From NCBI GenBank assembly GCA_943787705.1, contig CALSNL010000004.1, positions 8,158-72,157 on the forward strand: 64,000 nt of DNA, in the 5' to 3' direction. Every line of letters starts with the position of its first letter. The first letter of the stretch is position 1. Both the position numbers and the translations under genes were made by a program. The notes under the pieces were generated by a model, which had not been told where the DNA came from, made no database searches, and saw only the letters and a program-made list of their open reading frames with translations. This document shows positions 2,346-20,807 of the stretch, one piece after another. This DNA comes from an uncultured Pseudomonadales bacterium. Lineage in GTDB: Bacteria > Pseudomonadota > Gammaproteobacteria > Pseudomonadales > UBA7434.

Positions 2346-3160
2346 ATGTATTCCATCTTTAAGCACTTGCGTACCTGCGCGTTTGTTTCATTATCTTGCT
2401 TATCGCAGCAAGCCTCAGCTATTTATATTGATCTTAATTTCAGCGGCACACTGTCTAATTCCCAAAAAGCGCTTTTCACTCAGGCTGAACAATTCTGGGA
2501 AACTACGCTTACCGGCTATCAACCTAGCGTCAATGCCAGCTCGCTAAGCAATATCGTTATTAACGCTGAAGGGACAGCAATCGATGGCGTCGGCGGCACA
2601 CTTGGCTCTGCTGGACCAACCTATATATGGACTACCGGCGGCTATACGCTCACCTCTGAAGGCGATATGCGAGTTCGATACTGCTGACCTCTCTAACTTA
2701 GAAAGCAACGGCTCACTCGAAAGCGTGATTCTGCATGAAATGGCCCATGTATTAGGCTTAGGCACACTTTGGCAACTGAATGGCGTGTATACAGCCGGCA
2801 GTGGTCAATACACGGGTGCCAATGCTCTAAGCCTATGGCAAACTGAATTTGGCCAAACCAATGCTACGTATATTCCCTATCGAATTGGGTGGCGGACCGG
2901 GCACTGCAGGTGGTCACTGGAATGAAGTTAACAATGGCGGCGCTTTAACGGGTATCACTGATGCAAATAATAATGATCTAACTTACGAATTAATGACTGG
3001 CTGGCTAAACTCACCCACATTCATTAGTAACATGACGATAGCGTCTTTTGCCGACATCGGTTATGAAGTCGTATATTCTGAAGTCCCTATTCCTGCAGCG
3101 GCTTATTTGTTTTTATCTGCCTTAACGGGATTGGGTTACATTAAACGTAAACAACACTAA
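2346..3160 (+). pseudogene. Leishmanolysin-like HExxH zinc metalloprotease with a PEP-CTERM-like C-terminal sorting tail, split over three frames
   Basis: Three overlapping ORFs (2346-2687, 2584-2925, 2849-3160) read as one protein. It has a signal peptide (..SCLSQQASA), IDGVGGTLGSAGP, VILHEMAHVLGLGTLW, GGGPGTAGGHWNE, and the tail VPIPAAAYLFLSALTGLGYIKRKQH. At least two frame changes are needed, near 2670-2690 and 2870-2900. Confidence 0.6.
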
Positions 3161-5410
3161 CGTATGGCATCAATAACAATACTTGGCGTAAGTATTTGCG
3201 GCAGCACTACTGCCGTTTTACCAGGTGCATAATAAACATATAACGGCACGCCGTTACGAGAAAAAGTAGCTAGATACTCGGTAATTACCGGATCGCTATT
3301 AGTCCAATCGCCTTTTAAATAGGTAATGGACTGCGCTGCAAAAGCGTTCTTCACTTTATTCGTTCCTAATGCAATTCGCTCATTGACCTTACAAGTAATA
3401 CACCAGTCGGCCGTCATATTAACAAACACCGCTTCGCCATTATCTAACGCTTGTTGTAAGCGCTCTGGCGTGTATTCCTGCGCGTCACTTTCTACCGTTG
3501 CAGTATCAGTTAAGACGATATCATTACGCTCTACACTCGCCGCATACAGTGCCAGTATAATTGCAGCCACTAAAATAAACGCAGCAACAGCACGACTCAT
3601 AAAAGCATCATCACGGAATTGAGTTTGTCGCCAAATCCAAAGTGCCAGCGCCACTAATACCAGCCCCACTAACATTAAGGCAACTGCATCACCGCCCGTC
3701 TGACGCGAGAACACCCAGAGCAACCAAATAACGGTGAGGTAAATAGGAAAGGCCAAAAACTCTTTTAACCGCACCATCCAATTTCCCGGCTTAGGCAAGG
3801 CGTTAGCTAAGAACGGTATAAAGGCGATAAGCAAAAACGGCAAGGCTAAACCTAAGCCCATAGCGGCAAAAATCAGTAACGCAACGACTGCCGATTGACC
3901 CAGCGCAAAGCCCATTGCCGTTCCCATAAACGGTGCCGTACAAGGTGTAGCAACCACAGTGGCTAATACCCCAGTAAAAAATGAACCGCGCCAATCACTG
4001 CTTGAACGTTCTTTATTGCCCAGCCCTGAACCTAAGTTTTGCAGTGATGAGCCTAATTCAATAAAGCCCGATAACGATAAACCTAAGACAAATAATAGAT
4101 ACACTAAAAACGCGATAAACCAAGGCGATTGAAGTTGAAATCCCCAGCCAATTTGTTCTCCCGCAAATCGCAGAGCAATCAGTAAACCTGCAATGAATAA
4201 GAAACTTAAAATAACACCGGCAGTATAAGCAATACCATGCCGTCTTCGCTCTGTTGAATTATGATTACCGCTTTCAACTAAACTCACAATTTTTAATGAC
4301 AGCACAGGAAAAACACAAGGCATGGCATTAAGTATTAACCCGCCTGCTACAGCTAATAAAAGCGCATATAAAATACTAATAGGCGCTGCTGAGGTGTCGA
4401 CTGAAGGTGAATCAGATGAGCTTGCTGCAGTAGTTTCTTTGCGTCATTCAATAAGCGAGTTATTAGTACTCGCAAGTACTGCTTTTTTGCGTGCAGTAAA
4501 TTCGATAGCCTGAGCCTGACCCCTCTTCTGCCGCTGCCGTTACTAATAAAACAGACAGTAACTCCGGCGCCTCTTCTAAGTAGTAATCTTTTTTGGCAGA
4601 TATATGCAGTTGATCGTTAATTATTTTAATAGTTGGCTTATCAAAATTATCAACAATACCGGCACTACCAATAAACACTTGCGGTAGGCGCTCAAACGCT
4701 GGCAACTCATTTAATGCAACCGCAATATCTACCTGCTCACCCACAGCATAAGCAGCGTTATTGGTATAAATTAAACGAGGGATTTTACTGCGGGCTTCTT
4801 CAAATAATGGATGGCTCGTGGTCTCTTGAATGTTATCCAGCTTTCGATCTCGCAAAGGTAAGACTACTGTCAGTTCAGCTTTTCCAGGAATACAGACATC
4901 TTTGCAAATTAACCATTTTGCCGTTGCTGATAATGCTATCTCACCCTGGCTATTAATAGCGCCAGAAGAAATAGAAGCTGGTACAGAGATAGAGACCGGC
5001 AACCAAGTTTCACCGTGATAACCAAAATTGACCGCTCCTTGATAATCAATCCGTTCAGGCACTGGCCACTCTAAATTCCCTGCCCTAAATTGCTCAGGCA
5101 ACTGCCAAATAACGCGTGTGGGTAAACCCGTATCGCCAGGATTTCTCCAATAAGTGTGCCAGCCTTCATCAGGCAATAATCTTAGTGCTAATTGCGCAGT
5201 CTCACCAGCAACAAGGTAGCCCTGCTCACTCACTAAGCCGACCTTTATATGTGCTGCTGCTTTCTGCTCACCAAACACCGGCGAGCTTGCCAATACCGGC
5301 TTTGAGGCTATGGAAAGCATCATGCAAAATACGACAAACGCAGCTATCAAGCTGCGCTGTGGCGATAATAAGACCTTAACGGTCAAAAGGGCTTGCAACA
5401 TAGTCGACAC
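3157..5410 (-). pseudogene. dsbD: DsbD/ScsB-type thiol:disulfide interchange protein, interrupted between the N-terminal domain and the membrane core
   Basis: ORF 4463-5410 gives the signal peptide and the long periplasmic DsbD N-terminal-type domain (WHTYWRNPGDTGLPT). ORF 3157-4323 gives the membrane core (..LILNAMPCVFPVLSLK) and the C-terminal thioredoxin domain (WCITCK). Joining them needs a frame change around 4470-4530 and read-through of an in-frame TGA at 4444-4446. Confidence 0.55.
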
Positions 5411-5879
5411 TCAAAAATGAAGGTAATGGTTCATGGTAAAGAGATTATCAAATACTAAGTTAATTCAGTACTTTGGGCTGTGAGTTTGATTCAATTTGGC
5501 ATAAATGACCAACTTTGATGGCTTTCTAATAAGCAAAAGCACCATTCAAGAAGCCAAAAATGGCACCAAAAGCAAAACGGTTACATATTAACCACTCTTA
5601 TATTTGAATGCGCACTTGATTTTACCCTACTACGCCCCAATATTTAGCATAGATAACGGTGAAGTATTTCTTACGATACACACCGCAAAACAGATCGTTA
5701 CCAACCACCACTTCAACGATCTTTTTCGGCAAAATGTTAGCGCAATTATCATTATTAGCGTTGCGTTTGCAGGGGTATTGAGTATGATATTACCGTATTA
5801 GCGCAGCTTGTAAATGAGCACGCAAAACCGTTTTATATTTTCACTAGATTGAATAGACCAACACTTAGGAGTATTCACC

Positions 5880-6548
5880 ATGCAGGATAAACTTTTTAGC
5901 ACACAGGCCGCCGGTTCGCGTTCTGTTTTAGAAACCAATAAGGTACTTCGCAATACCTATATGCTGCTTTCAATCACGTTAATGTTTAGCGCTATCGCTG
6001 CGGCATCAACCATGGCAATGGGCATTGGTCGCGGCACATCACTAATGATGTCATTAGGCGCCTTAGGTTTAATCTTCTTCGCCCTACCCCGCACACAAAA
6101 TTCAGCGTCAGGTATTTGGGTTGTTTTTGCCTTTACCGGCCTTATCGGTGGTTCACTAGGCCCAATGCTTAATCACTATATGGCTATGGCCAACGGTGGC
6201 TCATTAATTATGCAAGCCTTAGGCGGCACAGCATTAGTGTTCTTTGGCCTATCAGGCTACGTGCTTACCACTAAGAAAGACTTCTCATTTATGGGTGGCT
6301 TTTTAATGGTCGGCTTGCTGGTTGCGATTGTCGGAATGATTGCAAATATCTTTCTACAGATTCCAGCCATGTCACTGGCTATCTCGGCAGGTATCGTATT
6401 GGTGATGTCTGGCTTCATTTTGTTTGATACTAGCCGTATTATTAACGGCGGCGAAACTAACTATATTCGCGCTACTGTTTCATTGTATTTAAACATCGTT
6501 AATTTATTCACTTCTATATTGCACCTTTTGGGCGCTATGGATGATTAA
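5880..6548 (+). CDS. yccA: BAX inhibitor-1/YccA family inner-membrane protein (copy 1)
   Basis: 222-aa multi-pass membrane ORF. It is clearly similar to E. coli YccA as I remember it (KVLRNTY.., LGGTALVFF, GGETNYIRATVSLY). GGAG sits 9 nt upstream of the ATG. Confidence 0.85.
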   Translation: MQDKLFSTQAAGSRSVLETNKVLRNTYMLLSITLMFSAIAAASTMAMGIGRGTSLMMSLGALGLIFFALPRTQNSASGIWVVFAFTGLIGGSLGPMLNHYMAMANGGSLIMQALGGTALVFFGLSGYVLTTKKDFSFMGGFLMVGLLVAIVGMIANIFLQIPAMSLAISAGIVLVMSGFILFDTSRIINGGETNYIRATVSLYLNIVNLFTSILHLLGAMDD

Positions 6549-6589
6549 GCAATAATTAAATCAGTCCTTTTTATAGACTGATATTAGAA

Positions 6590-6616
6590 AGCCCTGCTCT
6601 TGCGGGGCTTTTTTTT
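6590..6616 (+). terminator. Rho-independent terminator after yccA (copy 1)
   Basis: AGCCCTGC-TCTT-GCGGGGCT stem-loop followed by T8. Confidence 0.8.
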
Positions 6617-6697
6617 GGCTAAAATACCTTGAGAAAATAATGCAATACGGATGCTTTAACGCATAATAGCCTGAAATCTAGAAAGTAATTGGAGCTT

Positions 6698-7690
6698 ATG
6701 AGTAATACTAACGAACATGCTTTCGCGCAATTTATTCGTACTATCGGCAAAGGGAAAACCGGCCGACGCTCACTGACGCTGCAAGAAGCGCAAACAGCGA
6801 TGCAAATGATTTTGGCTAATGACGTTGAGCCACTTCAACTTGGCGCGTTTTTAATGGTATTACGAGTAAAAGAAGAATCGGCCGAAGAAATTGCTGGCTT
6901 TGTTCTCGCCTGTAGAGAATATATTAATAAAGATAAACCGGTGATGATAAAGCCAGATTTAGACTGGTCTTCTTATGCTGGCAAAAAACGGCAGCCGCCG
7001 TGGTTTTTATTATCGGCCCTACTGCTCGCTCAATCCGGCTATCGCGTATTTATGCACGGTGCCAGTGGCCATACACCAAACCGCCTTTATAGCGAAGAAG
7101 TGCTTAAGCAGCTTGGTATTAGCACTGCCACTAATTGGCAGCAATGCGAGCAACAGCTTAACGCTCATAACTTTAGTTTTATGCCTATTAAAAGCCTCTG
7201 TAAGCCCCTGCATGACATTATTGAGCTGCGTCCATTATTGGGTTTGCGCTCACCCGTGCATACGCTGACAAGGTTGTTAAACCCGCTGGAGTCAGACACC
7301 ACCTTACAAAGTGTTTTCCACCCTTCATACACCGATACTCATCATCATGCTGCACAACTGCTTATGCAAAAAAATGCTGCAGTATTTAAAGGTGAAGGTG
7401 GCGAAGTGGAATATCGACCGCAGGCCGACATTACGATTAAAGGCTTATCTAACGGTGAGAGTGAGCTCTATACAATTCCGCGCCAAGCTGAAGCACCTGA
7501 CGAAACCGATGTTAGCAGTCAACTATTGTTAAATTTATGGCAGGAAACGAAGTGTGATAGCCATGGATTAAAAGCCGTATTAGGCACTGCCGCTATTGCG
7601 TTAAAAACCATGGGAGTAGAAAAAAATATATCGCAAGCCCAGCAATTGGCTCAGCAACTGTGGGACAAGCGAAAAGAATCGTTAGTTTAA
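6698..7690 (+). CDS. ybiB: TrpD2/YbiB-like glycosyltransferase family 3 (anthranilate phosphoribosyltransferase-like) protein (copy 1)
   Basis: ~330-aa ORF. The N-terminus FIRTIGKGKTGRRSLTLQEA..LGAFLMVLRVKEES resembles E. coli YbiB (from memory). ATG at 6698 follows GGAG; the ORF track starts at the upstream TTG at 6689. Confidence 0.65.
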   Translation: MSNTNEHAFAQFIRTIGKGKTGRRSLTLQEAQTAMQMILANDVEPLQLGAFLMVLRVKEESAEEIAGFVLACREYINKDKPVMIKPDLDWSSYAGKKRQPPWFLLSALLLAQSGYRVFMHGASGHTPNRLYSEEVLKQLGISTATNWQQCEQQLNAHNFSFMPIKSLCKPLHDIIELRPLLGLRSPVHTLTRLLNPLESDTTLQSVFHPSYTDTHHHAAQLLMQKNAAVFKGEGGEVEYRPQADITIKGLSNGESELYTIPRQAEAPDETDVSSQLLLNLWQETKCDSHGLKAVLGTAAIALKTMGVEKNISQAQQLAQQLWDKRKESLV

Positions 7691-8605
7691 TTAAGCGTCG
7701 TCATAACCATTGGGATTAGCTGACTGCCATCGCCAACCATCCGCTGTCATCTCTTCAATACCCAACTCGGCTTGCCAGTTCAGCTCAGCTTTTGCTAGTG
7801 AAGCATCGGCATAGCAAATAGCCGCATCACCAGGGCGTCGGTCCACCAGCTTGTAAGGAATCTCACAACTTGAAGCTTTTTCAAACGCTTTAACCATATC
7901 CAATACTGAATACCCAATACCGGTACCGAGGTTATATGGAACGATGCCAGGAGCACTTTTTAGTTTTTCAAGTGCACATAAATGGCCTTTGGCTAAATCC
8001 ACAACATGAATATAATCACGAACACCGGTGCCATCATGCGTTGGATAATCACTCCCGTAAACGGAGAGCGCTGCTAATTTTTTTACTGCGACTTGCGCAA
8101 CATAGGGCATTAAATTATTGGGAATATCTTTAGGATCTTCGCCTATCAAGCCGCTACTGTGTGCGCCAGCAGGATTAAAATAGCGCAATAAAATGGCATT
8201 CCAGCGCGAATCGGATGCGCCTAAATCACGCAGCATCTCTTCAATAAATAATTTACTTCGACCGTAGGGGTTAACTGCTGATAATGGAAAGCTCTCGGTA
8301 ATCGGCACACTCGCCGGCTCACCATAAACGGTTGCCGATGAGCTAAAAACTAAATTGTATAAATCGTGACGCTGCATGGTTTCAAGTAATACCTGAGTAC
8401 CATAAATATTATTATCATAATATTTGAGTGGCTGCGCTACCGATTCACCCACCGCTTTTAAACCCGCAAAATGAATAACTGCTGAAAAAGTATGTTCAGC
8501 AAATACCGCTTCCATTTTATCTCGATCACGAATATCGATAGGGTAAAGCGTAATGCTTTTTTGAGTGATCGACTCTACACGCTTAAGCGCCTCGGTATTG
8601 CTATT
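7691..8605 (-). pseudogene. galE: 5'-truncated duplicate of galE (lacks codons 1-35, including the GxxGxxG NAD-binding motif)
   Basis: Protein-identical to residues 36-339 of the full galE at 10675-11694. A TAA at 8606-8608 lies immediately upstream in frame. The first in-frame ATG is at 8515 (residue 66 of the full protein). Confidence 0.85.
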
Positions 8606-8863
8606 TTACCCTACTACGCCCCAATATTTAGCATAGATAACGGTGAAGTATTTCTTACGATACACACCGCAAAACAGATCGTTACCAACCACCACTTCAA
8701 CGATCTTTTTCGGCAAAATGTTAGCGCAATTATCATTATTAGCGTTGCGTTTGCAGGGGTATTGAGTATGATATTACCGTATTAGCGCAGCTTGTAAATG
8801 AGCACGCAAAACCGTTTTATATTTTCACTAGATTGAATAGACCAACACTTAGGAGTATTCACC

Positions 8864-9532
8864 ATGCAGGATAAACTTTTTAGCACACAGGCCGCCGGTT
8901 CGCGTTCTGTTTTAGAAACCAATAAGGTACTTCGCAATACCTATATGCTGCTTTCAATCACGTTAATGTTTAGCGCTATCGCTGCGGCATCAACCATGGC
9001 AATGGGCATTGGTCGCGGCACATCACTAATGATGTCATTAGGCGCCTTAGGTTTAATCTTCTTCGCCCTACCCCGCACACAAAATTCAGCGTCAGGTATT
9101 TGGGTTGTTTTTGCCTTTACCGGCCTTATCGGTGGTTCACTAGGCCCAATGCTTAATCACTATATGGCTATGGCCAACGGTGGCTCATTAATTATGCAAG
9201 CCTTAGGCGGCACAGCATTAGTGTTCTTTGGCCTATCAGGCTACGTGCTTACCACTAAGAAAGACTTCTCATTTATGGGTGGCTTTTTAATGGTCGGCTT
9301 GCTGGTTGCGATTGTCGGAATGATTGCAAATATCTTTCTACAGATTCCAGCCATGTCACTGGCTATCTCGGCAGGTATCGTATTGGTGATGTCTGGCTTC
9401 ATTTTGTTTGATACTAGCCGTATTATTAACGGCGGCGAAACTAACTATATTCGCGCTACTGTTTCATTGTATTTAAACATCGTTAATTTATTCACTTCTA
9501 TATTGCACCTTTTGGGCGCTATGGATGATTAA
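8864..9532 (+). CDS. yccA: BAX inhibitor-1/YccA family inner-membrane protein (copy 2)
   Basis: Nucleotide-identical to 5880-6548, and it keeps the same 258 bp of upstream sequence. Confidence 0.85.
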   Translation: MQDKLFSTQAAGSRSVLETNKVLRNTYMLLSITLMFSAIAAASTMAMGIGRGTSLMMSLGALGLIFFALPRTQNSASGIWVVFAFTGLIGGSLGPMLNHYMAMANGGSLIMQALGGTALVFFGLSGYVLTTKKDFSFMGGFLMVGLLVAIVGMIANIFLQIPAMSLAISAGIVLVMSGFILFDTSRIINGGETNYIRATVSLYLNIVNLFTSILHLLGAMDD

Positions 9533-9573
9533 GCAATAATTAAATCAGTCCTTTTTATAGACTGATATTAGAA

Positions 9574-9600
9574 AGCCCTGCTCTTGCGGGGCTTTTTTTT
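9574..9600 (+). terminator. Rho-independent terminator after yccA (copy 2)
   Basis: Identical to 6590-6616. Confidence 0.8.
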
Positions 9601-9681
9601 GGCTAAAATACCTTGAGAAAATAATGCAATACGGATGCTTTAACGCATAATAGCCTGAAATCTAGAAAGTAATTGGAGCTT

Positions 9682-10674
9682 ATGAGTAACACTAACGAAC
9701 ATGCTTTCGCGCAATTTATTCGTACTATCGGCAAAGGGAAAACCGGCCGACGCTCACTGACGCTGCAAGAAGCGCAAACAGCGATGCAAATGATTTTGGC
9801 TAATGACGTTGAGCCACTTCAACTTGGCGCGTTTTTAATGGTATTACGAGTAAAAGAAGAATCGGCCGAAGAAATTGCTGGCTTTGTTCTCGCCTGTAGA
9901 GAATATATTAATAAAGATAAACCGGTGATGATAAAGCCAGATTTAGACTGGTCTTCTTATGCTGGCAAAAAACGGCAGCCGCCGTGGTTTTTATTATCGG
10001 CCCTACTGCTCGCTCAATCCGGCTATCGCGTATTTATGCACGGTGCCAGTGGCCATACACCAAACCGCCTTTATAGCGAAGAAGTGCTTAAGCAGCTTGG
10101 TATTAGCACTGCCACTAATTGGCAGCAATGCGAGCAACAGCTTAACGCTCATAACTTTAGTTTTATGCCTATTAAAAGCCTCTGTAAGCCCCTGCATGAC
10201 ATTATTGAGCTGCGTCCATTATTGGGTTTGCGCTCACCCGTGCATACGCTGACAAGGTTGTTAAACCCGCTGGAGTCAGACACCACCTTACAAAGTGTTT
10301 TCCACCCTTCATACACCGATACTCATCATCATGCTGCACAACTGCTTATGCAAAAAAATGCTGCAGTATTTAAAGGTGAAGGTGGCGAAGTGGAATATCG
10401 ACCGCAGGCCGACATTACGATTAAAGGCTTATCTAACGGTGAGAGTGAGCTCTATACAATTCCGCGCCAAGCTGAAGCACCTGACGAAACCGATGTTAGC
10501 AGTCAACTATTGTTAAATTTATGGCAGGAAACGAAGTGTGATAGCCATGGATTAAAAGCCGTATTAGGCACTGCCGCTATTGCGTTAAAAACCATGGGAG
10601 TAGAAAAAAATATATCGCAAGCCCAGCAATTGGCTCAGCAACTGTGGGACAAGCGAAAAGAATCGTTAGTTTAA
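9682..10674 (+). CDS. ybiB: TrpD2/YbiB-like protein (copy 2)
   Basis: Identical to copy 1 except for a synonymous AAT/AAC change (6706 vs 9690). Confidence 0.65.
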   Translation: MSNTNEHAFAQFIRTIGKGKTGRRSLTLQEAQTAMQMILANDVEPLQLGAFLMVLRVKEESAEEIAGFVLACREYINKDKPVMIKPDLDWSSYAGKKRQPPWFLLSALLLAQSGYRVFMHGASGHTPNRLYSEEVLKQLGISTATNWQQCEQQLNAHNFSFMPIKSLCKPLHDIIELRPLLGLRSPVHTLTRLLNPLESDTTLQSVFHPSYTDTHHHAAQLLMQKNAAVFKGEGGEVEYRPQADITIKGLSNGESELYTIPRQAEAPDETDVSSQLLLNLWQETKCDSHGLKAVLGTAAIALKTMGVEKNISQAQQLAQQLWDKRKESLV

Positions 10675-11694
10675 TTAAGCGTCGTCATAACCATTGGGAT
10701 TAGCTGACTGCCATCGCCAACCATCCGCTGTCATCTCTTCAATACCCAACTCGGCTTGCCAGTTCAGCTCAGCTTTTGCTAGTGAAGCATCGGCATAGCA
10801 AATAGCCGCATCACCAGGGCGTCGGTCCACCAGCTTGTAAGGAATCTCACAACTTGAAGCTTTTTCAAACGCTTTAACCATATCCAATACTGAATACCCA
10901 ATACCGGTACCGAGGTTATATGGAACGATGCCAGGAGCACTTTTTAGTTTTTCAAGTGCACACAAATGGCCTTTGGCTAAATCCACAACATGAATATAAT
11001 CACGAACACCGGTGCCGTCATGGGTTGGATAATCACTCCCGTAAACGGAGAGCGCTGCTAATTTTTTTACTGCGACTTGCGCAACATAGGGCATTAAATT
11101 ATTGGGAATATCTTTAGGATCTTCGCCTATCAAGCCGCTACTGTGTGCGCCAGCAGGATTAAAATAGCGCAATAAAATCGCATTCCAGCGCGAATCGGAT
11201 GCGCCTAAATCACGCAGCATCTCTTCAATAAATAATTTACTTCGACCGTAGGGGTTAACTGCTGATAATGGAAAGCTCTCGGTAATCGGCACACTCGCCG
11301 GCTCACCATAAACGGTTGCCGATGAGCTAAAAACTAAATTGTATAAATCGTGACGCTGCATGGTTTCAAGTAATACCTGAGTACCATAAATATTATTATC
11401 ATAATATTTGAGTGGCTGCGCTACCGATTCACCCACCGCTTTTAAACCCGCAAAATGAATAACTGCTGAAAAAGTATGTTCAGCAAATACCGCTTCCATT
11501 TTATCTCGATCACGAATATCGATAGGGTAAAGCGTAATGCTTTTTTGAGTGATCGACTCTACACGCTTAAGCGCCTCGGTATTGCTATTGGATAAATTAT
11601 CAACAACGACAACATCGTAACCAGCTTCTAATAACTCAATGCATGTGTGGCTACCAATATAGCCCGCACCACCTGTCACTAAAATCTTATTCAT
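10675..11694 (-). CDS. galE: UDP-glucose 4-epimerase
   Basis: 339 aa: [16 protein letters not shown] (Rossmann motif), [18 protein letters not shown] (catalytic YxxxK). Its stop codon abuts the ybiB stop (TAA|TTA at 10672-10677). Confidence 0.9.
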
Positions 11695-12132
11695 AAATCC
11701 CTAACCCTAATGTCTTTTTATTCATACATACCTATCTACTTAGCATAGATCATATAGCACTGAACGGTCGTAAAACATCCTGAAAGACAATCTTTTACCG
11801 TTCTTTTACCTCTGCGGCAACCTTAGCTCCTCTCACAGCCCTGACCAACGCTTACAGACTATGACTGATGATTGTTGAGTGTTTTACTTACTCATTCAAT
11901 GGCCCTTCAAATAGCTCTTTAGATAGCCCTTTAGCAAGCCTCTTTAATGAACTCTTTAAAACACAGGCAGACCCCCTATTAACTGTTAGCGCTTAGAATC
12001 GATCTTGAATTAATCCTGCAATAGCATCGCAGATAATTTATCATACCGCCTTTAGGATCTAATGATCATCAAATAAGCATAATACAGCAGCTGATGCTAG
12101 CAATTTCATCACGGTAATACGAAACCAAACAC

Positions 12133-13308
12133 ATGACTCAAGAAAAACTGTCGATACCTTCAATCAATTATGCCCCCGAGCAATACGAACAACTGCTGGA
12201 TGAAAAAGCCCAGCGAATCACACAATTATTAGCGCCATTTAACCCGCCGATCTCCGGCGACTATTTTCATCGCCGAAAAAGCACTTTCGGATGCGCGCTG
12301 AATTTCGTATTTGGCATGACAGACAAGGCGAAGATAATCATTGTTTTTATGTGATGTTTGAGCCCGATGCGCCCAGCTGTGCCAGTGAGAGTTGATCACT
12401 ACCCTATTGGTAGCTTATCAATCACCGCGCTCATGCCAGAATTACTTGCAACCATTAATCAATCCAGCACGCTTAAGCATAAACTCTTTCAAGTGGAGTT
12501 TTTAACCACCACAGGCGGCGAAGTACTCATTAGCTTAATCTATCATCGACAGTTAGATGAACTTTGGGAGGTTGAAGCGCGGCAATTAGAACAGCAATTC
12601 AATATTTTTGTGATAGGCCGTGCGAGAAAACAGCGTCTGGTTATTTCTCGTGACTATGTGGTTGAGACACTGCCTATCGTGACTGAAACACAGCCTGAAA
12701 AATCACAAGTGTTTAGCTATCACCAACAAGAAAACAGTTTTACTCAGCCTAATGCGGCTATTAATTGCAAAATGATTGAATGGGTTTTAGCGCAGTTCTC
12801 AGATAATAATAAGCAAGATTTGTTAGAGCTTTACTGTGGCAATGGTAACTTTACGATTCCGCTATCTCGACAATTTAATAAGGTGTTAGCAACAGAAATA
12901 TCTAAATCTAGCATACGACTCGCTAAGCAAAACTGTTTAATTAATGATGTCGAAAATATTGAATTTATTCGCCTAAGCAGTGATGAAACCGCATCGGCCT
13001 TAAAGCATGAGCGCGAGTTTAGACGACTTAAACATATTGATATCGATAGCTATAATTTTTCGACGGTATTGGTTGATCCGCCTCGTGCAGGACTCGATGA
13101 AAATACGCTTAAATTAGTGGCAGGGTTCGATACGATTATTTATATTTCTTGTAACCCGAATACGCTGGCAGAAAATCTGAGCACACTCAGCAATACGCAT
13201 AGCGTTAAAGAGTTTGCACTATTCGATCAGTTCCCTTACACCAACCACTGTGAATGCGGCATGATATTACAACGCCTTCCACTCAATGAGGATAACCCGA
13301 ATGTCTAA
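12133..13308 (+). CDS. trmA: tRNA (uracil54-C5)-methyltransferase TrmA, with two apparent frame breaks near the 5' end
   Basis: The N-terminus [26 protein letters not shown] and the alternative-frame [19 protein letters not shown] match E. coli TrmA (from memory). The remaining 316 aa has the SAM-methyltransferase core ([24 protein letters not shown]). Frame changes lie near 12250 and 12360-12390. Confidence 0.8.
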
Positions 13309-16080: not shown

Positions 16081-16113
16081 AAAAACCAAAAAACCAGCAT
16101 AAGCTGGTTTTTT
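16081..16113 (-). terminator. Bidirectional-looking intrinsic terminator after the OmpA_C-encoding segment
   Basis: AAACCAGC-ATAA-GCTGGTTT stem-loop, flanked by an A-run (a T-run on the minus strand) and by T5 on the plus strand. Confidence 0.75.
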
Positions 16114-16500
16114 GGGACGAACATTTAAGCAGAGTGCTATCTTTTCAGCTCTACATGCACTCGGCGATTGTATGCACGATTTTCATCAGAGTCATTAAGT
16201 CGAGCAGGAAGCGATTCGCCAAAGGCATGTATTTCAAACATTTCAGGGTCGACGCCCTGACTTTCCATATAATCTGCAGTAGCCTTAGCACGACGCTCAG
16301 ATAACTTCAAATTATAGGCTTGTGATCCATTGTCATCGGTATGCCCTGAAAAGACCACTTTATCAAATCGATTCGAATTAACCACATAAGCAGAAACACG
16401 ATCAAGTCGATTAGCAGAAGCCTCTGTAATCTATTGCTATCATTTTTAAAGTGAATCAAGCTCGAAATCAATTGCTGCATTTCAGGATCTTCACAATCTT

Positions 16501-16598
16501 CCGCCGGATTCATATCTCGACCTTCCGAATACCCACATGGAAGATTCTAACGTTTCATCGCTGGAAACTAATCCTAAAGAAGCATTACTACTGTTATT
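16501..16598. repeat. Diverged direct repeat, copy A (partner at 16845-16932)
   Basis: CCGCCGGATTCATATCTCGACCTTCCGAAT is identical over 30 bp and CGTTTCATCGCTGGA(A/T)ACTAATCCT is near-identical. Overall identity by eye is roughly 85%, at an offset of 344 bp. Confidence 0.8.
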
Positions 16599-16844
16599 GA
16601 TTCCTGGCAATAGGTACATTGACGCCATGATGCAGACGTGGACCTATGATTGGTTTGACTGGATCAACTGGATCTACCGGCCGACCGGATCTACCGGATG
16701 CTACCGGATCACCGGTCTACCTGATCACCGGTTCCGGATCCACCGGATCGCCTGGATCACCTGGATCGCCTGTACCACCATCGCCTGATCACTTCTAGTG
16801 ATCAGGCTAGAATCAGCTGCTGTAGTTGACGGATCTTGACTCAT

Positions 16845-16932
16845 CCGCCGGATTCATATCTCGACCTTCCGAATCCCACTGGCGATCTACCGTTTCATCG
16901 CTGGATACTAATCCTGGCATTCTACTGTTATT
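16845..16932. repeat. Diverged direct repeat, copy B (partner at 16501-16598)
   Basis: See copy A. On the minus strand both copies encode ..GLVSSDET....WDSEGRDMNPA.., and copy A carries a 1-nt insertion. Confidence 0.8.
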
Positions 16933-16960
16933 TCCGCCAGTTCCGCCTTGGTGCCATAGG

Positions 16961-17008
16961 CACCTGTATCAACGGTTCCGCCTGTGCCACCTGTATCAAC
17001 GGTTCCGC
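16961..17008. repeat. 27-bp-period tandem repeat
   Basis: CACCTGTATCAACGGTTCCGC occurs at 16961-16981 and again at 16988-17008. On the minus strand it encodes GTVDTGGTG-GTVDTG. Confidence 0.85.
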
Positions 17009-18915
17009 TCTGTACATCCGGTATCTGGATCTAGTGCCGGAGCCCAAGTTGTAGTATTTTTGCCACCACCTGAGCCGCCTGGATCAATAATAACCGGTGG
17101 CATACTAGCCTCATTCACCACTGAAATGCGTGTCCAGCTATTAATAAAGTCACTTGAACCGTCTTCAGTAGTACCTACTGGGTTAAACACACCATTAATA
17201 ATGTCAACGTCTGCGTTGCCATCAATTCTATTAGTAACGACACCGCCGACCATATTAAAAACATCACGGCCACCAAGACCTTTAACAATAGCAACTGTAC
17301 CCGCAATATTAAACGTATCATCGCCAGCACCACCTATTAATGTGCCTATAGAAGCGCCATCAAGTATGTCTAAACTATTCTGTATTTGTGATGTTGCTGC
17401 TAAATACTCAATATTCGTAAAGCTTACCGCCGCCGTATTTTCCCAGCCATTACCTGAGCCTATACCCTCATAACTTGCAGTACCTTCATTAACGCCGGTC
17501 ACCTGGTAGTTAGCTAATCCGAATAAACGGTTAACTTCACCAGCACCTATAATAGATAGGCTAGACATACTGGTACTTAGGTTTTCATAAAACTCCAAGC
17601 GACCTTCTGAATCGGTAGTGTCCTCACCAATTGTCATAGAGACACTACCTGTGCCCGCATCAATCTGGTTAGCTAATACTATTCTGCCGGCATTTATTTC
17701 AATATCGCCGTTCGTAGCTGATGTATCCAAGTTACCCGTAGAATTGATCTTACCTCCGGTACCAATCAATCGAATGACACCGGGCGTTGAAATATCAATA
17801 CCTGTAGCGCGAATAACGCCTTTGTTATTAATCGCAAAGCTTTTAGGGTCAGAAACAATAGCGCGAATATTGATATTATTTGCACTGACTGTCGCATCCG
17901 CAGCAATATCAACAACACTGTCACCGCGGCTTGTTTGCAACGCCTCAGAGATATCAAACTGCATTAAATTATTATTATCAAAGGTAACAATGACTTCATT
18001 ACCTGCGATTAAATTCAAATCGCCAGCGGTTATTTCAATGTCACCATCAACATTAATGTCACCGGATAACAAAGCAATTTGAGCATCGGTTAAATTAGAA
18101 GTTAGGCCCTGCACGTCAATACTGGCGCCGGCGCCGTTGGTGGTAAAACGAAAATCGCCATTTTCAAAATCAGCAGTATCAATAGCGAGAGTACTTGCCA
18201 CTAAACTGGCTAAATCAACTTGCGCACCCGAACCAAAAACAATGCCATTTTGATTTACTAAAAAGACCTGAACGTTACCGTTAAGTACGCCATTAATATT
18301 ACTGGCATTACCACTCGTGTCGTTGACTAATACTGACCAGCTAGCAGCATCGCCACTATGGTTAAACGAGAGTGTTTCAGGAGCATCAACATTCACCCCT
18401 GCTCCAGAGAAATCAACAACGCGATTATCTTGGCTCACGGTTAAAGTGCCTTGACTACCATTAATGTTGTAGTTTGAATCGCCATTAACTGAATTAAAAT
18501 CAGCTGTCTGTGGAAGCGCAAATCGTATTTTGCATAATCACTGCTGAGGTGAGCATGGCAATAGTGCGCGAAAGAACCGGTTTTCTGAAGGTTACGGAAA
18601 GCTTACTCATATCATACCTACCTTATTTGGGCTATATATGGCACTGTATCTATCTGGAGCAAGACTGAGCGAAAAAAATAGAACACGCAAAGCCTAATGA
18701 ATGGGGTCAATCACTACAAAAATTTAACCAACTGCTTTAGTTTTATTATTAAAAGCTATTTAACTAGTGGGTAGCGAGACTAGATAAAAACGTTTTATTT
18801 TCAATGACTTATAAAAACAACTATTATTGGTTAAATTATAACCAACTGTGAGACTTACCAACAACCTGAAAACGATGTTTTTATCCTCTTCTTATAAGGC
18901 CCAAGAAACCAGTGC

Positions 18916-20674
18916 TTATAAATTCAGACCAACGCTCAACCAATATTGAGTACCCTCGCCATTAGCTGCCTCTGAGCCATCAAAGGGCTTAGCCGCAGAA
19001 AATCGAGCAAATCCACCAATATTCGGAAAAGTCAGCTCAGTCTCAACACCCCAACCAGCAATATCGAGTGAGTCTGTTGCTTCGCCATTGGCATCCTTCA
19101 ACTTACCCCAGCCATAATCAGCAAATACTGACAGCGATAAAATCTCACTCCAACTGTATTCGCCATAGGCAATGCCATTAGAAAATGCACCACCATTAAT
19201 AACCCAAGACAAACTAGTGAATACCGCAGTATCTCTAATGTATTCAGCAACGGGATAAGCCCTTACTGTATAGGGCCCACCTAAGCTCATGCGCTCTAGT
19301 GTAGATAATGCGTCGTCGGAATATTGGCCATTAAAGTGAAATAATAATGAGTTATTACGCACAACTGATTGCAAACGACTATAGCTTGCACTGACTTTAC
19401 TAAATTGGCCTGGCAGCGCTTGCTCACCATTAATGACGCCTAAACTTTCGCCATTACCTTGGCCATCCATTGAACCTAAAAAGTCATTAAAGCCATGCGA
19501 GAAGGTTAACGAACCACGGTGCACACCTCTAAATCGTGTATCTACCGAATCGGCTATAACTGAAGCTTCAAGTACAGTTAAACGATCGACCCCTTGCGCT
19601 ATATTGAATGATGTGAAATCGACATTGGAACGCTTAACGGCCAAACCAAGGCGCGTAGCTAAGTTAACATTTCGCTGACGTATCCATTGTGAGTTAATAA
19701 ATATATCGCCAATTTCTGTCTTGCCCTCTATTCCCAAAGCAAGGACGGCACTATCTTCGACGTTATAACTTGTCTTACTAAAGCCAAGCCCAAAAGTATG
19801 CACTAAATCGGGATGCGTTATTTGATAGGTGACTCTAGCATTGCGTAAATCACCCGGACTGAATGTTTTAACTGCGTATCTACTGACAGTTGATCGATAT
19901 GGCCAGTAATATTATTCACTTTAATGGCAAGCAATAGTCGCGCCTCACCGGTTGATTCAACACCATAATTATCGGCTTGAATAAAATAACTAATCGGGTC
20001 TTCATCAACCGTTTTAACCGTTAACGCTGTTTCACCCAAATCGTTGCCCGGCTTAAATACAGCGGTAGCAGTAAAACCAGGCATATCACTTAAGCGAAGA
20101 AGTTTACTCTCAACAAAATCAAGCTGGACCGCACTCACCGATAACGTTCTTGAAAGGTATGCTGGATAACACTGTCGCTGTATAAGACATTAGCATCACT
20201 GTTAACACCGCCAAACTTGCCGACAAATACGTGAATAGCTACGGCACCGTTCTCAATTTCTTGGGCAGGTAAAATCGCCTTTGCCAGCATTAAGCCTGAC
20301 TGCCGAAGGTTTTCTGTTACCAGAAAAGTGAGGTCATCAAGCTCAGTTAAATTAAAGTTATTATCGGAATCTAAAAGATAATCATTAACGAGATTGTTAA
20401 TGTTATTGACCTTTGTCACTAGCGATAAGTTGTGGCTCATCATAAGTCACAACCAATTTTTGCACGCTAATCACTGGGCCGCTGTCAGCATCTGTAGGTG
20501 GCGCAGCTACAGGAGGAACCGTTACGATATTTCATCAACAATAGCAGGAAGCATAGGCACTTCTCGCTCGGGCTCTAATGCACCTGGAGAATATGGTTTG
20601 AGCAACAGCAGAGGTTTGTAAAGCACACAACCATGAGTCCTGTTGCGCTGCAAATAATCCTTTTTTTTAAGCAT
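18916..20674 (-). pseudogene. TpsB (ShlB/FhaC-type) outer-membrane transporter, fragmented
   Basis: Fragments 20135-20443 (POTRA-like), 19818-20138 (LRLSDMPGF..TALTVKTVDEDP..YFIQADNYG) and 18916-19803 (beta-barrel ending ..YWLSVGLNL) are collinear. The N-terminal signal region starts at ATG 20674 and crosses a T8/A8 run at 20661-20668. I count at least five frame changes. Confidence 0.65.
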
Positions 20675-20807
20675 CGTTATATCCCACTGCATTATTTCTT
20701 ATTCCCCATGATGGCTGCGATCCTTTCGACACTAACCACTAGCCAATATAGTAGATCTACTTATTATTAAAGCAGCTTTTTTCTCTTAAACAGTAACCGA
20801 TAAGAAT

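Follow-up and report, generated by a model that had tools for sequence, protein, structure and literature searches.

Silent differences between the copies of a tandem duplication at galE in a marine metagenome-assembled genome may reflect co-occurring strain haplotypes

Introduction

Tandem duplications are lost quickly through RecA-dependent recombination, and conversion between the copies homogenises them. False haplotype duplications, which arise in assembly, are known from vertebrate long-read assemblies, and tools for phasing strains, such as Strainberry and Strainy, exist. The locus described here lies in a window of 64,000 nt (the whole stretch of DNA that was analysed) and consists of two adjacent copies of one segment that differ at a handful of positions. 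The earlier note, made from the letters of the window alone, held that these differences agree less well with random decay than with an allelic patch that had evolved under purifying selection elsewhere and had been imported by recombination or gene conversion. As a second route it offered the distribution of strain-level polymorphism between the copies by the assembler.

The source genome comprises 2.6 Mb in 7 contigs and is 97.8% complete. It is a consensus over a natural population and not an isolate, and is a metagenome-assembled marine gammaproteobacterium, probably of the SAR92 clade; the source databases label its proteins as coming from metagenome-assembled genomes (MAGs) of Pseudomonadales or Cellvibrionales. 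Its nearest contigs have Flye-style contig or scaffold names from one assembly series, or come from short-read marine assemblies. A study of a North Sea spring bloom (PMC10108472) reports 30 PacBio HiFi metagenomes, with Flye 2.8.3 --meta run on each sample, and six MAGs of the SAR92 clade, and we infer that this dataset is the origin of the genome.

Results

Structure of the tandem unit

The duplication has a period of 2984, as determined by exact offset comparison and a boundary walk, and its two copies are arranged head to tail. The offset is constant and there is a single novel join, so that, as a sequence structure, this is a tandem segmental duplication. The trinucleotide ATT occurs at 5619 to 5621, 8603 to 8605 and 11587 to 11589, and constitutes a 3-bp microhomology at the join. 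BLAST of the genome against itself returns the same structure (C4:13776-16762 against 16760-19746, 99.83% identity, 0 gaps). The features of the two copies are as follows.

5619 to 8602, no strand: copy 1 of the 2,984-bp unit, with the yccA leader, yccA, the ybiB-like gene and the 3' 912 nt of galE
8603 to 11586, no strand: copy 2 of the 2,984-bp unit, which continues into the intact galE 5' end
8603 to 8605, no strand: the junction trinucleotide ATT, in its sequence contexts
5880 to 6548, plus strand: yccA-like gene of copy 1, a Bax1-I family FtsH modulator (NCBIfam NF007765, E = 1.8e-68; Pfam Bax1-I)
8864 to 9532: yccA-like gene of copy 2, identical to that of copy 1
6698 to 7690, plus strand: ybiB-like glycosyl transferase family 3 gene of copy 1, 330 aa (NF006564, E = 4.8e-121)
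9682 to 10674: ybiB-like gene of copy 2, whose sole difference from copy 1 is at 6706/9690
7691 to 8602, minus strand: truncated galE, codons 37 to 339 and the stop (profile positions 65 to 338 of the GalE model), with the copy-1 alleles at 7979, 8033, 8039 and 8195
10675 to 11694, minus strand: intact galE, 339 aa (TIGR01179, E = 1.1e-134), with the copy-2 alleles at 10963, 11017, 11023 and 11179

By codon arithmetic, the truncated galE is without a start codon, a promoter and the first 36 codons, which include the N-terminal [11 protein letters not shown]-binding motif. The exact protein of the intact gene is found on 83 contigs of the sequence collection, and the 330-aa ybiB-like product on 19. 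A longer, 333-aa form of the latter with a TTG start was also looked up and gave no match; it is the 330-aa form with its ATG at 6698 that matches. Gene callers also start the gene at this ATG, which makes 6706 part of codon 3 and not of codon 6, and a third position either way.

For the spacer between galE and trmA (11730 to 11983), which lies next to the duplication, conspecific contigs offer no close match beyond 105 bp at 91-93%. The genes that flank this strain-variable spacer are 97-99.7% identical among conspecifics.

Several genes elsewhere in the window are split or shortened, namely dsbD (3157 to 5410), trmA (12358 to 13308) and tpsA/tpsB (about 16100 to 20700). In other assemblies of the same species the corresponding proteins are intact, with lengths of 746-748 aa for DsbD, 390 aa for TrmA, 589 aa for TpsB and about 700 aa for TpsA. 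What interrupts dsbD is a 2-bp gap near position 4522, within a variable linker. For these genes, consensus error or a strain-mixture consensus is more likely than real pseudogenes, and since several are broken here yet intact in other assemblies, consensus problems in the MAG are likely. Haplotigs were looked for inside the MAG and none were found, the small contigs C5 and C7 not being near-duplicates of the large contigs.

Differences between the copies

Exact comparison of the copies over the 2,984-bp unit gives 0 indels and exactly five mismatches, which are listed below with the base and codon of copy 1 before those of copy 2. The earlier note had counted five differences, all silent and at third codon positions, and had called for an exact alignment as a check; the alignment bears out the count, with no further mismatch and no replacement, intergenic or indel difference.

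6706 (9690 in copy 2), plus strand: variant site 1, T/C, in the ybiB-like gene, AAT/AAC (Asn), silent; a common SNP in the population
7979 to 8195, minus strand: the 217-bp galE segment that holds the four remaining sites
7979 (10963): T/C, galE Leu244, TTA/TTG, silent
8033 (11017): A/G, galE Asp226, GAT/GAC, silent
8039 (11023): C/G, galE Thr224, ACG/ACC, silent
8195 (11179): G/C, galE Ala172, GCC/GCG, silent

Silent changes make up 19.6% of the possible substitutions in the unit. Five silent changes in five would arise by chance with P = 2.9e-4 (5.6e-4 allowing for the 3 transitions and 2 transversions), which is at odds with neutral post-duplication decay. The concentration of four of the five sites in 217 bp of galE, also pointed out in the earlier note, is real, and has P = 0.0065 under uniform placement. 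By manual count, the galE part of the unit has no excess of population SNPs (6 of 23 sites, vs 31% of the length), and the clustering in galE is mildly non-random even against this background. A sequence motif shared by the five sites, which could indicate a methylation-linked consensus error, was looked for, and none was found.

Alleles in the wider population

The copies were compared with a panel of 22 conspecific unit sequences from 21 contigs, and with two added panels, made up of 10 contigs that carry a second galE allele class and 6 contigs from the sister species. A scan of JGI metagenomes with GalE gave one conspecific contig, L043, among the matches listed. At three of the five sites the difference corresponds to standing polymorphism. 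Both alleles at 6706 are common, C being present in 7 of the 22 conspecific sequences. L043 carries the copy-1 pair 8033A/8039C, as do all 10 sampled contigs of the second galE class; at these two sites copy 2 has the alleles of the commoner class. The remaining two sites have no such match within the species. The copy-2 allele 7979C is private to this genome within the species, and its sole other occurrence is in the sister species. Position 8195 is A in the species; copy 1 has G (as does the sister species), and copy 2 has C, which is seen nowhere else. Across the genus, this last, four-fold degenerate position takes all four bases: the Ala172 codon of the species is GCT, copy 1 shares GCC with the sister species, copy 2 has GCG, and two other species have GCA.

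The second-class alleles that copy 1 has at 8033 and 8039 are absent from the flanking diagnostic sites 8213, 8217 and 7964, and the recognisable tract is this pair only, with a length of at least 7 bp and at most 215 bp (7980 to 8194). A co-occurring strain that is itself a mosaic could be the source of the same tract pattern. Both copies also share a rare backbone (7964T, 8306C, 8477A). The earlier note thus fared unevenly here. Its view that the differences are alleles that had already been through selection, and not random decay, agrees with the occurrence of the 6706 and 8033/8039 alleles in other strains, but the picture of a single foreign patch across the 217-bp segment of one copy is not supported. 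Apart from the 8033/8039 pair, 7979C is private, the two alleles at 8195 are different and both private, and the rare backbone is common to both copies.

The distance between the copies (5 differences) is of the size seen between close strains over the same unit (median 4, range 0-10), and copy 2 is nearer to strain L130 (4 differences) than to copy 1. By these distances, the copies appear to behave as two closely related strain haplotypes and not as a recent duplicate pair. The sister species is 93% identical and, with third positions partly saturated, polarises the changes only weakly; this polarisation was not relied on.

A sister-species genome (G004) has two versions of galE, 93% and 84% identical to that of the window, on separate short contigs (C208 and C198), and its ybiB-like gene is interrupted by an assembly break. 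In that genome too, strains or alleles thus seem to be heterogeneous at the galE locus.

Two further duplications in the same genome

Comparison of the genome with itself by BLAST revealed two more tandem duplications, both with 0 indels between the copies and joins with 0 bp of homology.

C1:111635-119912 (L133): first C1 duplication, 4,139 bp, 11 differences; nadC (3' part), an aspartic-protease-like gene and a DUF1631 gene
C1:145035-151699 (L134): second C1 duplication, 3,331 bp, 9 differences; a TonB-dependent receptor gene (its end only), an amidohydrolase gene and the greater part of a Y-family polymerase gene

When the three duplications are pooled, their 25 differences comprise 18 silent, 2 replacement (both conservative) and 5 intergenic changes, and the silent share of the coding differences (18 of 20) has a chance probability of about 1.6e-9. 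Independent assemblies contain both alleles at 10 of the 11 sites of the first C1 duplication and at 8 of the 9 of the second. This includes the replacement alleles, Ile/Val in the DUF1631 protein and Asn/Lys in the amidohydrolase, of which both forms are present in short-read assemblies of other samples. The pattern of silent differences in the window is a general property of the assembly.

The comparison of the genome with itself is dominated by a high-copy repeat family of about 1 kb, with dozens of sites that are 90-98% identical (for example C1:119912-120870 and, outside the window, C4:111820-113007). One copy has its start precisely at the right-hand boundary of the first C1 duplication. 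Recombination between these repeats was considered as the origin of the window duplication and was rejected, as the repeats do not flank it.

Duplications in a sister assembly and in the sequence collection

A sister assembly, ERZ10646685, has tandem duplications of its own at the galE and nadC-DUF1631 loci, with junctions that differ from those of this genome.

scaffold_19158 (L039/L123), equivalent to 5255 to 8340 of the window: galE-locus duplication, period 3084, TG overlap, one difference
near that duplication, in the HDOD/pterin-4a region: a perfect 638-bp tandem repeat
contig_10260 (L138/L139): nadC-DUF1631 duplication of about 4.3 kb, at the same locus as the first C1 duplication

The single difference in its galE duplication is a common replacement polymorphism at 7194. 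In its nadC-DUF1631 duplication, the second copy (L139) opens with about 500 bp of a divergent allele of the hypervariable pilin-side flank, which is 89% identical to the flank of another strain and 76% identical to that of this genome. Intragenomic duplication cannot give rise to such a flank; haplotype chaining between two strains can, as can foreign DNA that is integrated additively. L139 has the form expected of chained haplotypes, and shows that haplotype chaining exists in this assembly series. No such divergent stretch is seen in the window duplication, where the copies are identical right up to the boundaries.

The galE locus of the window is single-copy in nine of the ten long-read-type contigs of the species; short-read contigs cannot tell a single copy from a duplication. 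The ORFs that span the window junction (97 and 74 aa) and that of the third duplication (51 aa) were not found in the sequence collection, and the truncated products NadC' (241 aa) and, in the sister assembly, GalE' (264 aa) occur there on their own contigs only. The only match to the 274-aa truncated GalE is a short-read scaffold (L042) in which the gene adjoins trmA, and not a duplication. The normal alleles are found on tens of contigs, and no junction-spanning product of any of the duplications was found beyond its own contig.

Discussion

The explanation that we favour, with modest confidence, is that an assembler or polisher may have sorted or joined strain haplotypes into the two copies. 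The MAG would have been built from long reads of a natural population with several near-identical strains, and the 2,984-bp segment with yccA, the ybiB-like gene and the 3' part of galE would have been laid down twice in tandem. Each copy would then have taken its consensus from a different subset of strain reads, and the copies would differ where co-occurring strains differ. These strain differences would already have passed through purifying selection in functional single-copy genes, and such filtering would explain why the differences are silent at third positions even in the truncated galE, which is free of selection. The patchiness would follow from short recombination tracts, which account for most of the difference between closely related strains. 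We infer that the assembler or polisher joined or sorted two haplotypes that were not resident in one chromosome; the junction itself may exist in some cells. The explanation is ordinary, and probably technical.

Several lines of evidence appear to favour such mixing, among them the signature common to the three duplications, the proximity of copy 2 to L130 and the lack of independent support for the junctions. The chained haplotypes of the sister assembly and the known instability of real tandem duplications point the same way. As to the two routes offered in the earlier note, import and assembler mixing, the genome-wide context favours the latter, because three duplications share the signature and the sister assembly chains two haplotypes. 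Against assembly mixing, the haplotypes would have to be very close sub-strains, neither of which is in the sampled panels, because both copies carry 7964T, 8306C and 8477A. Also against it, 7979C and both 8195 alleles were not found within the species, and the clean join inside galE, with its 3-bp microhomology, has the look of genuine illegitimate recombination. To build it, an assembler requires reads that bear the junction, and we know of no documented failure mode of Flye that gives exactly this structure.

Some of these features also speak for a real tandem duplication in one chromosome, formed at ATT by illegitimate recombination. Its copies would then have been diversified by homologous recombination with DNA of other strains, which brought pre-selected alleles into one or the other, and by a few silent mutations in the functional copy. 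The junction is a clean microhomology join inside a gene, and 8033A/8039C in the truncated copy resembles a short conversion tract of the second class, bounded by sites of the copy-1 backbone. The rare backbone alleles in both copies are as expected from one ancestral strain, and the same two loci are duplicated in another sample with other junctions, which could reflect recurrent, selected amplification. We nevertheless consider a real duplication possible but unlikely. Because tandem copies are rapidly lost or homogenised, it is improbable that three units of 3-4 kb would each persist to 5-11 differences of the population type. In addition, copy 2 is closer to another strain than to its partner, no independent assembly has any of the junctions, and the 912-bp galE fragment carries no private change unknown elsewhere, despite having about four times the neutral sites of the intact copy.

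A more far-reaching form of this reading, which seems to us quite improbable, is that co-occurring strains carry recurrent, independent duplications at yccA-ybiB-galE and nadC-DUF1631, which are selected for dosage and are diversified by inter-strain recombination faster than conversion can homogenise them. Should this be true, it would be a case of natural gene amplification and allele capture, in the wild, in a bloom-forming marine gammaproteobacterium.

Ordinary mutation after duplication, with all five changes in functional genes and replacements purged by selection, is very improbable. Copy 2 has the only intact galE, where silent-only change would be expected, and the sister species would place three of the four galE changes on copy 2, although this polarisation is weak, as noted above. 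At 8033/8039, however, it is copy 2 that has the common species allele, and the pair in copy 1 is not a new mutation, because it exists as a linked pair in another allele class. The variant at 6706 is a common SNP, and in all, single-copy strains already carry segregating alleles at three of the five sites. The truncated copy has no replacement-type change, with about four times as many neutral sites, and the signature recurs in the two other duplications, intergenic and truncated parts included. Random sequencing or consensus errors are hardly credible: the assembly does have consensus problems, with several genes frameshifted here that are intact elsewhere, but errors would be silent in five of five cases with a probability of only about 3e-4 and would not reproduce the alleles of independent short-read assemblies, and the sites have no common motif and the copies no indel difference. 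The silent bias and the sharing of alleles together exclude both simple post-duplication decay and random sequencing error.

The biological import of the differences is small; silent, patchy differences are how strain-level microdiversity in a recombining population appears. The case is mainly one for caution. The MAG holds at least three tandem duplications of 3-4 kb whose copies resemble different strain haplotypes, and several of its genes that appear broken are intact in other assemblies of the species. Readings of gene dosage, pseudogenes or gene conversion from it are therefore not to be trusted unless they are checked on the reads. Real and recurrent duplications, should they prove to be such, would be one of few natural cases in which an uncultured marine bacterium amplifies specific loci.

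Comparison with known systems

The duplication resembles the haplotype-induced (false or heterotype) duplications in that adjacent near-identical copies differ at positions that correspond to allelic differences between haplotypes of the sample, and in that several loci of one assembly are affected while independent assemblies lack the pattern. It is unlike the classical cases in its position, as those are usually located at contig ends or scaffold gaps, whereas the present join is gap-free, lies in a gene and has 3 bp of microhomology. The mechanism inside the assembler that would give such a duplication is putative.

The tandem duplications and amplifications of Salmonella and E. coli share with this locus a head-to-tail unit of a few kb, a join with 0-3 bp of homology and a gene that is truncated at the join, and the locus is also hit again, with different end points, in another sample. 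Those duplications are unstable and their copies are initially identical, whereas the copies here diverge at the level of strains and three such duplications are present in one genome.

The third comparison is with inter-strain recombination or gene-conversion tracts. The locus departs from such tracts in that a donor class can be recognised for only two of its five differences, those remaining in galE being private. The 8033/8039 pair itself resembles them, as a short tract with the diagnostic alleles of the other class and recipient-type flanks, and silent differences would be expected of donor alleles that evolved under selection.
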